In this document: positions 1,723 to 15,759 of the stretch, one piece after another | Layout of the letters: each line of letters opens with the position of its first letter | Position numbering within the stretch: position 1 is the first letter of the stretch | Assembly (NCBI RefSeq): GCF_013122565.1 | Contig: NZ_CP053258.1 | DNA length: 64,000 nt | Source: Escherichia coli | Lineage (GTDB): Bacteria > Pseudomonadota > Gammaproteobacteria > Enterobacterales > Enterobacteriaceae | Direction: 5' to 3' (one strand) | The notes under the pieces: model-generated | Databases searched by the model: none | Seen by the model: only the letters and a program-made list of their open reading frames with translations | What the model was told of the DNA's origin: nothing | Translations under genes and position numbers: made by a program

Positions 1723-4479
1723 TTACCCGAGAATTTTGCTGGCTTCGCGCGCGACATTATCCATCTCGTCCAACAGTTCCAGCAGCTCCGGCTCCAAATC
1801 TTCTTCTTTAGTACCGCTACGTAGCTGTTGTTCGATCAGTTGGCAGAGATTCTTCATACGCGGCACACCGCTATAGCCGCAACTGCCATGCAGTTTATGA
1901 ATCAAATCAACCAGGCCTTCCGGGTTTTCTCCAACCAGCTGTTCCTCAACTTTGTTGCGAACTTCAGGCAGGAAATCGAGTAACATTTGCAGCATATCGC
2001 GCGCTAAATCGGTTTTTCCTGCTGCCTGGCGTAGTGCCAGTTGCCAGTCGAGGGTCGCATTCGGGTTCACCACAATTTCGTTGACTTCGGGCGTCACGAC
2101 GCGAGAGGAAATACCGCTGCCAGGCTTGTAGCGCAACAACAAATTATGCAATCGCTCTTCTTCAATCGGTTTCGCCAGATAATCGCTCATCCCTGCGCCA
2201 AGCAGCTTCTCTTTTTGCCCGGCCATTGCATGCGCCGTTACCGCGATAACCGGCGTTTGTTGCTGATGGGGGAGCTGGTGGATGAGCTCGCAGGCCCGAA
2301 TGCCATCCATGTCCGGCATTTGAATATCCATTAAGATCAAATCGAACGGCATCTGTTTCGCCCGTTCAACCGCCTGATGCCCGCTATCGCAAAGTTCCAC
2401 ATGTTGCACCATATCTTCCAGCAATGCGCCGATAAGTTTCAGGTTAGCGGGGTTGTCATCAACCGCCATGACTGTCATTGCCAGCTTACTTTCATCGGTT
2501 ACAGGCAAAAGCGTGTTTTGTTTGTGATGACAAAATTCCGTCAGGGCAGGCAACAGGCGCGTAGGTGTTAATGGTTTCAGCAGACACGCGCCGATACCAT
2601 CTTGCTTAAGTTTTTCAGCATTGACTTGTGCATGGCAAGGAAGTGCCAGCATCAGGAAATCGGTCATCGATACCGCTTTCGCTAATCGCTCATGTTGCAT
2701 TGTTAGCGGCTCGCGGAAGGTCACCGCGATGCCTAACAACATCATGTCGTAATGCGCGGGAGGCAGCGCGGAGAACGTTGGGCTATAAACCACTTCCAGC
2801 GGCGTTTCACTTAAAATATCCAGCGTGCATTGCGCTGCTGCGGAGTTTGGTTCGACATAGGCCAGGCGCTTACCTGCGAGGCACTGGGTGGATGGCCCTT
2901 CGATAATAATGTTCGGGTTCAGATCGAGATTAATGTGGAACCAGAAAGTTGAACCGCGATTTGGCTGGCTATGGAACGAAATATCGCCGCCCATTTCATT
3001 AACCAGTTTTTGTGTAATCACCAGCCCCAGCCCGGTGCCACCATGACGGCGGGAAATACTGGCATCAGCCTGTCGGAAGGCCTGGAATAAGCGCGATTGA
3101 TCGCGTTCAGGAATACCAATGCCGGTATCCCGAATCTGCACTTCAATCTGCACTTTGGTATTACTCAGCGCACGTTTTTCTACCAGAATATCAATGTTGC
3201 CATTCTCGGTGAATTTAATTGCATTCCCCACCAGGTTAGTGATGATTTGCTGTAATCGCAGTGGGTCGCCGATCACGTTATCAGGCACGTCGCTTTTAAT
3301 ATTGAGCGTCAGTTCCAACCCTTTATCGTGAGAAGAATGTGCCAGCAGAGTAACGACTTCATCCAGCGTGCTGCGTAGTGGGAATGGAATACTTTCCAGA
3401 ATCAGCTTACCTGCTTCCAGTTTCGAGAAGTCGAGAACATCATTAATAATTGCCAGCAAATTATTTGCTGAACGTTCAATCGTATTCAGGTGATCGCGCT
3501 GCGTTGGTGTTAATTCTGTTTTCAGTGTCAGGCGGGTAAAGCCAATAACACCATTCAGTGGTGTACGCAGCTCGTGTGACATATTTGCCAGAAACTCGGA
3601 TTTAATACGCGCCGCTTCCTGGGCGCGCTTTTTCGCCAGATCCAACTCAACGTTCTGAATTTCCATCTGCTCCAGCGTTTCACGCAGATCGGACGTCGCC
3701 TGGTCGATATTGTGCTGCATCTCTTCGTGATAAGCAGCCAGCGACATTGCCATCGAGTTGATACCGTTTTTCAGCATATCCAGCTCGCCGAGCATAAATC
3801 CTTCCACCCGGCTGTCGAGTTGCCCGCGACGGATGCGGTCGACGGTATTCACCATGTTGCGAATCGGACCGGTTACATCGCGCATTAAGCGCCAGCCAAA
3901 AATAAGCGCAATACCGATACAAAACAGCATCATCACGCTGGAAATAAAGATCTCTTTATATTGCTGCAAGCGAACCGATTTAAGATCCAGCTCAAGCGCA
4001 ATATATCCCAACATATTTTGACTATTTTTGGCATCGCTACTGGGCGATTCGTCGGGGGAATAACTCTCAGAAATAATCGGCGTGCGGAGGATCATAATAT
4101 CGCCGTCACGAGTGACAGTGAGCTGGCGAGGAAACGGCACGTTGCTGCCGAGCTGCATTGATGAGGGATCAAGATGAAAATTGGAGGTGACAAAGAGTCG
4201 GTTATTTTCATCATAAACCGAAATCGCGCGAACAATATCAGAATGGCGACGATGCAGTACGCTTATTAACTGACCGATAGATTCGCGATTTTGCAGGCTC
4301 ATGCCATATTCAGTAGAAACTGCAAGCGGCTCAATAATGCTGGCACCGGCATCTTCCAGTTGACGCTGCAAGTCGTTATAGCGATGCACGACGAAAAAGA
4401 TACTCAGCAATAAACCAATAAGGACGGTCGGTGCCAGGATCAGAATCATCATGCGTGCGCGCAGGCTGTAGTTGGTCAT
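1723..4479 (-). CDS. barA: Hybrid sensor histidine kinase BarA
   Basis: 918 aa ORF with TM N-terminus, HAMP, HisKA (SHELRTPLN), HATPase, receiver and HPt domains. Confidence 0.95.
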
Positions 4480-12316: not shown

Positions 12317-13189
12317 TTACCAGCGGCCAGATGCGCCGCCCCCGCCAGAAGAACCGCCCCCGCCGCTAAACCCGCCGCTATCTGAGCCTCCAGCGGAACC
12401 GCTGTTGTCTGAATGATAACTTCTACCAGATGCTCTTTTCTGAAGTACACATAAACAGGTAAAGACCATAAATATGGTGAAAGTAAAAAAGAAGGAAAAT
12501 ACAGCAATGGAAAAAGTTTTATCGGAGAACAGGAATAAATCTAAAAGATAGATTGCTGAAATACAGACTCCACTTTTACATGCGCGACAAAAATTACTGC
12601 CTTGATGAAAAAACCAGAAAGGGAAGAACATCACTGCAAATACCCAAAAAATAGCAAAGTAATAATGATCACTGGAAGACGCTGATTCACTTTCTGAAGG
12701 ATTAGCCGGATATTGGTGTTGTGAAGTGAGTTGGTTATTCAAAGCGTTTATAGCTAGCTCTAATCCCTGAGCTAATTTTTGTTGTTTAAATGCGGGTATC
12801 ATGTTGCTACGGATGATATCTCCAGCCAGAGCATCGGTTACCTTTTCTTCCAGCCCATAACCTACCTGGATGCGGACAGTACGATCCGACCAGGCAACAA
12901 TGATCAGTATCCCATCATTACGTTTGGCATCTCCTAAACGCCAATTGTCAAAAACTCTTGTAGCATATTGTTCAATTGTCTCGTCTTTGGTTGTGGGAAC
13001 AATTAATACAGCAATTTGCACTTGGGTATTATTGAAAATAGATTCTAACTTGTACGTCAGTTCTTTCTTTTCTTGTGAGTTTAAGCTACTGGTAAGATCC
13101 GTAACTTGTTGCTGTAATGATGGGACAATAGTTGGTTGGGCTGCAACAAAGGAACACACGAATGTGAACATTAGTATGAAATAGCGCAT
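12317..13189 (-). CDS. ygcG: TPM-domain protein YgcG (signal peptide, Gly/Ser-rich C-terminus)
   Basis: ORF track 12317..13471; internal start [19 protein letters not shown] (signal peptide) gives 290 aa; the 5' extension is AT-rich and unlikely to be coding. Confidence 0.8.
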
Positions 13190-13481
13190 TATAAATTTCT
13201 CATTAAATCTGGATAAATAAATTGACGGCGGCATCGGTAATTTGAGATTCGTTATCATTAAAAAAGAATACAGAAAAATAAATATAAATTTGGTGAATGT
13301 TTTTGACATGATTAAATCCATTTTCTTTATTTTCTTCTGACATAATACGTTACTCCCTTTAATTCTTAACGATATGTTTCGCATTTTTCTTGAAACCTGC
13401 CTGTAACAGAATGTTAATAAGACATGATTGTTGTGGCAGGATCTGCAATAATTAACAATTATCCACTTCACAGAGAATGCT

Positions 13482-14153
13482 ATGCAGTACCCGATTAACG
13501 AGATGTTCCAGACCCTGCAAGGTGAGGGTTACTTTACCGGCGTCCCCGCCATTTTTATTCGTTTACAGGGATGCCCGGTTGGCTGTGCCTGGTGCGACAC
13601 CAAACACACCTGGGAAAAGCTTGAGGATCGGGAAGTCTCCCTTTTCAGCATTCTGGCGAAGACCAAAGAGAGTGATAAGTGGGGGGCGGCGAGCAGTGAA
13701 GACTTGCTGGCTGTCATTGGTCGCCAGGGATATACCGCGCGGCATGTGGTGATTACGGGGGGTGAGCCTTGCATTCATGATTTGCTGCCACTGACTGACC
13801 TGCTCGAAAAGAACGGTTTTAGCTGCCAGATCGAAACCAGTGGTACTCATGAAGTACGCTGTACACCGAATACCTGGGTTACCGTATCGCCAAAGCTGAA
13901 CATGCGCGGCGGCTATGAAGTGTTGTCACAGGCACTGGAGCGAGCCAACGAAATCAAGCATCCAGTGGGACGCGTACGTGATATTGAAGCACTGGATGAA
14001 CTTTTGGCGACGCTGACCGATGATAAACCGCGAGTCATTGCACTGCAGCCGATTAGCCAAAAGGATGATGCCACACGTTTGTGCATTGAAACCTGCATTG
14101 CGCGTAATTGGCGTTTGTCGATGCAAACCCATAAATATTTAAATATTGCCTGA
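13482..14153 (+). CDS. queE: 7-carboxy-7-deazaguanine synthase (radical SAM)
   Basis: 223 aa; CxxxCxxC-type cluster motif ([13 protein letters not shown]). Confidence 0.92.
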
Positions 14154-14160
14154 TTAAACA

Positions 14161-14490
14161 TTTATAAGTGTTATAAATGGGTGGAACCTGTAAAGAATTC
14201 CACTCATTTATATTGTTTGTCGCCTCTGAAAACCCCTCTTTTTTGCCCATCCTTGACTAATCATTATCATTCTCTACAAATTCTGTGGCGTTAATTTTTC
14301 GCTGGAGTGAAAATTATTGCGGTAAAGTTTGGTAGATTTTAGTTTGAATAGAGTTATTTTAAATATTTATCTTTTTAATCAATGGATTAAGTGCTCTTTA
14401 ACATAATGGATGTGTTGTTTGTGTGATCCTGTAAAGTTGTTAGATTGTGACTGGCTTAAAAAATCATTAATTAATAATAGGTTATGTTTA
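14161..14490 (+). promoter_or_regulatory. CRISPR leader (AT-rich), ending ...ctggcttaaaaaatcattaattaataataggttatgttta
   Basis: AT-rich block abutting the first repeat; the 3' end matches the E. coli type I-E leader terminus as I recall it. Confidence 0.7.
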
Positions 14491-14702
14491 GAGTTCCCCG
14501 CGCCAGCGGGGATAAACCGGCGATTATAGCGGACTTTCAAGAGAACAGTCTGAGTTCCCCGCGCCAGCGGGGATAAACCGTGGAAAATCACCGACAATAT
14601 TCGACATGGAGAGAGTTCCCCGCGCCAGCGAGGATAAACCGTTATCGGTCATCAACTATAGCGCGTATTTACTAAGTTCCCCGTTCCAACACGAATAATC
14701 CG
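14491..14702 (+). CDS. placeholder
   Basis: placeholder. Confidence 0.
14491..14702 (+). CRISPR. Type I-E CRISPR mini-array: 4 repeats (4th degenerate), 3 spacers of 32 bp
   Basis: Repeats GAGTTCCCCGCGCCAGCGGGGATAAACCG at 14491, 14552, 14613 (one G>A change) and a degenerate copy at 14674; AT-rich leader upstream. Confidence 0.93.
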
Positions 14703-14767
14703 ATAATATCGACGATACCAACCTAATATTATCAAATGTTAAAGGTTCTAATTTAAGAGGAAATTTA

Positions 14768-15031
14768 ATGTCTACGTTAATGGAAAAAGAATCTCTCCTG
14801 AATGGCGTGAGTCAAAATATTGCATTTTTATCAAATGTATCTGAAATGGTTTACAACTCTCAGAATGAAGAGTTGCAGTATGAAATATATGAGCTGGTGA
14901 GTTATAAAGATTATCTATACTCAACAGACCATGAACTTGTTGATTTTCAAGAGGGAGTATTACGATTTCAACAAATTAGAACAAAATACAGGCAAGAGCT
15001 AAAAGAACTCGGTTATCCTGTAGGTAATTAA
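14768..15031 (+). CDS. Hypothetical small protein (87 aa), no recognised family
   Basis: ORF preceded by AAGAGGA Shine-Dalgarno about 7 nt upstream of the ATG; AT-rich codon usage unlike flanking core genes. Confidence 0.5.
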   Translation: MSTLMEKESLLNGVSQNIAFLSNVSEMVYNSQNEELQYEIYELVSYKDYLYSTDHELVDFQEGVLRFQQIRTKYRQELKELGYPVGN

Positions 15032-15393
15032 GAAATATTGTCTTGATGGTGGGGAAACGTAATTTTTTATATTTTAAATATTAGATTAAAACAATAAATT
15101 AATATCATACTTTTATTTTATTCTCGAAAATGCCTAATTTCATTAAATACGTTGTCCTGTAAATGTAAACCGGGCATTTTTCCGCCCGGTCTCCCTCGAT
15201 TACGCTTCTGAGCAGGTCTCGAGCGAATTCACACTCTCCCGTTCAACTTGCATCACCAGTTGGTTAAATTCAGTCAAACTCTCGCTCATAATAATAATGT
15301 CGCAGTCGTCTTCCATGTCATGCCCCAGATATCCAGAACACAACACCCTAACATAGCGTTACTTAAGGGAAATTGACCGCCGACACACTCTTA

Positions 15394-15759
15394 TCATTCG
15401 CCGCGATAGATACAACCTGCGGTGCAGGTTTCTTTCACCATCACTGCACTTAATAGCGGCACAACGGGTTTAACCTGATCCCAAATCCATTTTGCTAAAA
15501 CTTCGCTGGTTGGGTTTTCCAGACCTGGAATATCATTGAGATAATGGTGATCGAGGCGCTCATAAGTTGGCTTAAACGCCGCTTTCAGTTCAGCGAAATC
15601 GATAATCCAGCCCGTATGCGGATCGACTTCCCCGGTAATTTCCAGTCGCACCATAAAGGAATGCCCGTGCAGGCGACCACATTTATGTCCTTCCGGGACG
15701 TGTGGTAAGCGGTGAGCGGCTTCGAAGGTGAAATCTTTAAATAACGTGGTGGACATCAT
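15394..15759 (-). CDS. queD: 6-carboxy-5,6,7,8-tetrahydropterin synthase
   Basis: ORF track 15394..15843; start at [19 protein letters not shown] gives about 121 aa; PTPS family with zinc-binding His motif. Confidence 0.9.

Follow-up and report, generated by a model that had tools for sequence, protein, structure and literature searches.

A 38-codon open reading frame beside queD in Escherichia coli is very probably the scar of an old deletion between ygcN and ygcE

In approximately 94% of complete Escherichia coli genomes the FAD oxidoreductase gene ygcN adjoins queD. In the window, the whole 64,000-nucleotide stretch of E. coli DNA analysed here, the place beside queD is occupied by a short open reading frame (ORF), which raises the question of whether it is a gene, the remnant of one or neither. 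On the minus strand an ATG at 15316-15314 opens MEDDCDIIIMSESLTEFNQLVMQVERESVNSLETCSEA, which a TAA stop at 15202-15200 closes after 38 codons. A sequence-only reading had described this start and stop together with a GC-rich hairpin (15169-15190) and a T-containing run behind them, all of which are borne out on the minus strand, and had offered three readings: a small gene, a 3' fragment left when a gene was deleted, and chance. In a mechanically made ORF list the same frame reaches back to a GTG at 15346, giving 48 amino acids, and 63 ORFs of at least 25 amino acids overlap the surrounding 5 kb, so a length of 38 codons is by itself within chance. We here conclude, at a probability of roughly 0.9, that one old deletion, of about 10.6 kb, left the ORF as a scar without function. 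The CRISPR-II array of E. coli lies between ygcE and ygcF/queE (PMC3903273), and the setting in the window is as follows.

13482-14153, plus strand: queE
14489-14702: CRISPR-II array, four repeats spaced 61 bp
14768-15031, plus strand: 87-aa ORF
15394-15759, minus strand: queD
from 16075, plus strand: cysJ

Results

By alignment and RNA folding, the stretch between the 87-aa ORF and queD divides into these parts.

15200-15316, minus strand: chimeric 38-codon ORF, a ygcN'-'ygcE fusion including the TAA; the frame was checked and the two-part origin comes from alignment
15288-15316, minus strand: 5' stub of ygcN, 29 nt, encoding MEDDCDIII plus the first two bases of codon 10, identical to K-12-type ygcN
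15200-15287, minus strand: diverged 3' remnant of ygcE, 28 codons and the TAA, which ygcE has too; homology is demonstrable over 15200-15256 only
15287-15288: deletion junction, ambiguous by a few bases in an ATT repeat, from alignment with other carriers
15167-15192, minus strand: terminator-like hairpin of ygcE, core stem ACCGGGC/GCCCGGT at 15169-15190, then UUUACAUUU; from RNA folding, with pairing kept across haplotypes
15317-15393, minus strand: native queD-ygcN intergenic region with the ygcN upstream sequence, by identity to K-12

The 5' end of the ORF matches ygcN. Searched by megablast against 5,426 complete E. coli genomes, positions 15040-15400 found a match in 5,425, in all but seven of them only over 15288-15400; this part, typically identical at 100%, coincides in most E. 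coli genomes with the annotated start of ygcN and the end of queD. The ygcN coding sequence of JM109 starts at the base equivalent to window position 15316, with a product that begins MEDDCDIIIIGAGIAGTACAL, and K-12 YgcN begins MEDDCDIIIIGAGIAG. The alignment to ygcN is identical through ...GACATTATTATTAT and then diverges completely: after DIII the ORF reads MSESLT, where K-12 YgcN reads DIIIIGAGIAG. Judged from this alignment, the ATG and first nine codons of the ORF are the start of ygcN, in the orthologous position downstream of queD, on the same strand and with the same ATG. The intergenic region 15317-15393 also keeps the weak GGGG Shine-Dalgarno-like motif of ygcN.

The likeness to ygcN (b2766), which in K-12 encodes a FixC-like FAD-dependent oxidoreductase, thus consists of the place beside queD, the upstream region, the start codon and the first 29 nt, or nine residues. 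Nothing of ygcN remains past codon 9-10, so that the GxGxxG FAD-binding motif and the ETF-QO ubiquinone-binding domain are both gone, and the ORF has 38 residues compared with 423. Full-length YgcN matches 13 FAD/NAD families in Pfam, with the FAD/Rossmann domain running from residue 4-6 on, of which the fusion keeps about four residues. A Pfam search of the 38-aa peptide returned neither DAO nor FAD_binding, and the GxGxxG dinucleotide-binding motif of the YgcN/FixC-like oxidoreductases is absent from it.

The 3' end has another source. A sensitive blastn search with positions 14690-15290 found 15170-15256 to be 76-77% identical to ygcE in approximately 1,000 genomes, and in RMDEC465 the match runs from the 87-aa ORF to the ygcE end. 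The ORF tail aligns codon for codon in the ygcE frame, with a YgcE C-terminus of ...VMHGELGNEDSIQSWSNA against ...VMQVERESVNSLETCSEA in the window and ...ETDSNA* in the other carriers of the junction, and the ORF and ygcE have the TAA stop and the following hairpin in common. As aligned here, ygcE, an FGGY kinase gene, supplied tail, stop and hairpin from its 3' end, with the homology shown for 15170-15256. The junction-proximal 30 nt or so (15257-15287) share only about 44% identity with ygcE, and their ygcE origin is suggested by colinearity alone. Of the sequence-only readings, the fragment left by a deletion therefore holds for the distal two thirds, in which tail, stop and hairpin are the ygcE 3' end in the ygcE frame, and fails for the ATG and nine codons that are ygcN.

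Compared with ygcE (b2776), which encodes an FGGY-family carbohydrate kinase, the last 19 or so codons, the TAA and the hairpin are homologous (approximately 72-77% DNA identity) in the same frame, and the tail faces the CRISPR-II/queE side, as in intact genomes. Intact YgcE carries its FGGY domains at residues 5-420 of 494, with FGGY_C ending at 420 (Pfam); the tail kept in the ORF corresponds to residues of about 468-494, so the fusion retains none of FGGY_C, and neither FGGY_N nor FGGY_C was matched by the peptide in Pfam. An FGGY kinase domain is thus lacking in the ORF, both FGGY domains being gone; the tail has only about 26% amino-acid identity to the YgcE C-terminus, and it shows no codon-position bias, which indicates that it has drifted. 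A parent ygcE allele with the exact tail was not found in the complete E. coli genomes, the protein collection or the species-level reference genomes, where an exact-pattern scan with the ORF tail gave no match.

What lies between the two ends elsewhere is seen in the intact genome RMDEC465, which has the order queE, 87-aa ORF, ygcE, yqcE, ygcW, ygcU, ygcS, ygcR, ygcQ, ygcP, ygcO, ygcN, queD, and in which the ends retained in the window are approximately 10,610 bp apart. Ten genes are missing from the window (ygcN, ygcO, ygcP, ygcQ, ygcR, ygcS, ygcU, ygcW, yqcE and ygcE). Each breakpoint falls within a gene of the block, and the ten genes between are gone; the arrangement therefore results from a deletion, rather than being an insertion site that was never filled. 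One deletion would have taken out the whole ygcN-to-ygcE block, which normally lies between queD and the CRISPR-II array beside queE. Its first breakpoint would fall in codon 10 of ygcN, within a ATTATTATTATT run, and its second about 28 codons ahead of the ygcE stop. The ends would have been joined in frame by luck, at a one-in-three chance, such that the ygcN ATG reads into the old ygcE stop; because the joint is in frame, the ORF still ends at that stop. Behind it stands the old terminator hairpin of ygcE, and any 38-residue peptide made would probably be a by-product without function.

The junction is rare. Besides the window it is common to seven of the 5,426 complete E. coli genomes, all seven having one ATT unit fewer and a C for G at the junction, and six of them share one 37-aa version, MEDDCDIIISESLTEFNQLMMQVERESVNSLETDSNA. 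Of the 5,426 genomes, 5,122 cover the body of ygcN to at least 80%, and 26 do not match it at all.

The substitutions within the ORF bear on whether it codes. Between the tail and ygcE they are spread 9:11:11 over the codon positions, with 20 codons changing the amino acid and three synonymous, whereas the 87-aa ORF in the same pair of haplotypes gives 8:8:26. Between the window and strain 13E0767 the ORF has six substitutions, all in codons with a changed residue (none synonymous), plus a 3-nt indel in the ATT repeat. In isolate 23S01245-7 the ATG has become ACG, and there are five non-synonymous against two synonymous changes. Neither purifying selection nor a conserved start, as looked for in a functional small protein, is present. 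Over 15032-15287 the window is 89-93% identical to 13E0767 and the other carriers, compared with 98-99% for the flanking queE, 87-aa ORF, queD and cysJ; this low identity fits relaxed constraint. From RMDEC465, the only intact relative, 15032-15287 is approximately 23% diverged.

Searches for relatives gave the same picture. The 48-aa GTG-start version of the ORF, used as query against 5.8 billion protein clusters, brought up only this scar again (P0001, 37 aa) and another ygcN fusion (P0002). Among these clusters there was no full-length protein that ends in the ORF tail (SESLTEFNQLVMQVERESVNSLETCSEA). The NCBI PGAP annotation has no coding sequence at the junction in any of the seven carriers, and the peptide matches no family in Pfam, NCBIfam or PADLOC. 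Across protein clusters, species-level genomes and these three family collections there was no homologue beyond deletion carriers, none in other species and no described family. Rfam gave nothing at 15100-15400 even at E <= 1, and elsewhere only sub-threshold chance matches (CRISPR repeats and a snoRNA model).

The most durable alternative is that the fusion is a new functional small protein, a gene born by deletion from the ygcN start signals and kept by selection, which we consider very unlikely. Its specific form, in which the in-frame ygcN'-'ygcE junction made a translated micropeptide of 37-38 residues whose frame has been maintained in several diverged E. coli lineages, would be just as improbable. 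The ygcN upstream region and ATG are indeed retained, the hairpin behind the stop is conserved, and none of the eight copies (three distinct haplotypes, 5-7% divergence) has an interruption between the position of the ygcN start and the common stop; their sole indel is of 3 nt, a multiple of three. An open frame and a 3-nt indel are also what selection on a peptide would give. With about 13 substitutions, however, a frame free of new stops would be seen roughly half the time without selection, and the indel falls within a triplet repeat. Against a gene birth stand also that every difference between the window and 13E0767 alters the peptide, that 23S01245-7 is without the ATG at a non-synonymous to synonymous ratio of 5:2, that the tail substitutions are even over codon positions, that no domain is kept and no family matched, that the carriers number only seven in 5,426 and the ORF is annotated in none of them, and that an earlier role behind ygcE accounts for the conserved hairpin.

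Hence, with no constraint, the start lost in one carrier, no outside homologue and no family, the small-gene option of the sequence-only reading is unsupported. That reading had also proposed to look for homologues and frame conservation: homologues turned up only as the same scar, and the frame, although open in eight copies, is as expected without selection at so few substitutions. The ORF shows no sign of a working gene and is a chimeric pseudogene remnant of an ordinary kind. A toxin-antitoxin or defence small gene beside the CRISPR array was considered as a separate candidate and rejected, given that no family matches and that ygcN and ygcE account for both halves.

The hairpin is the one element of the locus that looks maintained. 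It consists of accgggcggaaaaatgcccggt at 15190-15169, 9 nt past the stop, with the loop GGAAAAAT between ACCGGGC and GCCCGGT, with TTTACATTTAC next. The predicted RNA fold of the 96-nt region has -24.8 kcal/mol and, compared with dinucleotide shuffles, z = -3.1; it contains a 10-pair stem at 15192-15167, all ten pairs of which are kept in five haplotypes, including K-12-type and RMDEC465-type intact ygcE, through G-C/G-U/A-U changes that break no pair. The run behind it is U-rich on the minus strand only, which sets its orientation as minus-strand.

The resemblance to Rho-independent terminators lies in a GC-rich stem of 7-10 bp with a loop of 6-8 nt directly past the stop, then a U-containing run, and in pairing conserved across diverged haplotypes. 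The U tract is nevertheless short and interrupted (UUUACAUUU), and the K-12-type allele is almost without one; terminator activity is putative. The stem is strong; a strict consensus terminator scan returned no site, because the maximal stem takes up the first three U residues and the rest of the tract is interrupted.

Between queD and the ygcN stub neither the consensus scan nor folding (z = -0.52) found a terminator-like or unusually stable structure, and promoter-like sites in a consensus scan were at the level expected from shuffles. Given that the ygcN upstream region is kept and that no terminator follows queD, transcription from queD probably runs on through the stretch. In that case queD transcripts that read through the scar would now probably end at the hairpin. 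A 12-pair hairpin is also predicted on the minus strand at 15317-15345, in the 28 nt upstream of the ygcN ATG, taking in the GGGG motif; it may be chance, as the whole intergenic fold is no better than shuffles (z = -0.52).

The different ygcN fusion found in the protein search (P0002, 54 aa, 35 contigs) represents a second ygcN-ygcE deletion allele. It has the first 22 YgcN residues, after ten from an upstream GTG start call, and then unrelated sequence. Its loci (L012-L014) read queD, the 54-aa ORF, an overlapping 137-aa ORF that is an FGGY_C fragment, then queE. The same gene pair is joined, the same block lost and a short ORF again opened at the ygcN start signals, but the breakpoint is at YgcN codon 22 and the joint out of frame and further upstream in ygcE. 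Because the breakpoints differ, this is an independent event. On these breakpoints, the ygcN-ygcE block has been lost at least twice independently, and its loss recurs. In E. coli JNE082640 (AP027206.1) the P0002 gene is at 4001-4165, and its nr name is 'carbohydrate kinase'.

This second allele also bears on the polarity of the event. The short ORF might be ancestral and the 10-gene ygc block inserted in an ancestor of most E. coli, given that the haplotype with the empty site is highly diverged in 15032-15287 and flanked by a rare 87-aa ORF, which could suggest an old alternative arrangement. We find this hard to credit: both breakpoints are inside block genes, the stub encodes the first beta-strand of the YgcN FAD-binding domain, which in intact YgcN runs straight into GAGIAG, and the tail is the ygcE end with stop and terminator. 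An insertion must have brought two genes each without an end and completed both exactly. RMDEC465 has the 87-aa ORF plus an intact block, and a second deletion with other breakpoints exists. An ORF arisen by chance in intergenic DNA, unrelated to any gene, hardly merits consideration even though ORFs of this size are abundant by chance and no family matches, since both ends refute pure chance, the one being exactly identical to the ygcN start and the other, the tail, matching ygcE significantly by blastn in approximately 1,000 genomes.

Three neighbouring features were also seen. The 87-aa ORF on the plus strand, MSTLMEKESLLNGVSQNIAFLSNV..., lies between the CRISPR-II array and the ygcE remnant, and its DNA is approximately 32% G+C. 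It is annotated as 'hypothetical protein' (WP_024243946.1), occurs in only eight of 5,426 complete E. coli genomes and shares 84% DNA and 83% protein identity with its RMDEC465 homologue, the differences being those split 8:8:26 by codon position. It has no match in Pfam, NCBIfam or PADLOC, and an exact-pattern scan of species-level reference genomes did not find a 32-mer conserved in both haplotypes. By its substitution pattern the 87-aa ORF behaves like a real gene, and it is a side observation with more potential than the ORF scar.

The CRISPR-II array has four type I-E repeats, the last degenerate (74%), and three spacers. The annotation of RMDEC465 shows no CRISPR array in the interval from queE to the 87-aa ORF. 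Further out, a 46-aa ORF on the minus strand (13203-13343) lies at the position of yqcG, encoding a cell envelope stress response protein, in other genomes. The mechanically made list has a 384-aa ORF (12317-13471, minus strand) that covers the TPM-domain gene ygcG and whose 5' extension contains the 46-aa ORF; yqcG is marked as a frameshifted pseudogene in 13E0767.

Discussion

Here, we account for an unannotated ORF as a pseudogene scar, for which a gene call is unwarranted. A literature search on ygcN, ygcE and deletion found no papers. The ORF itself has little biological weight beyond bookkeeping; if the micropeptide reading were true, the locus would illustrate, in nature, how a deletion fusion can give birth to a gene.

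The haplotype that the scar marks is rare (seven of 5,426 complete genomes and the window) and is without the whole uncharacterised ygcNOPQRSUW-yqcE-ygcE block. Such a haplotype offers a natural knockout and, beside the CRISPR-II typing locus, a lineage marker, and two independent losses suggest that the block is dispensable in some niches.
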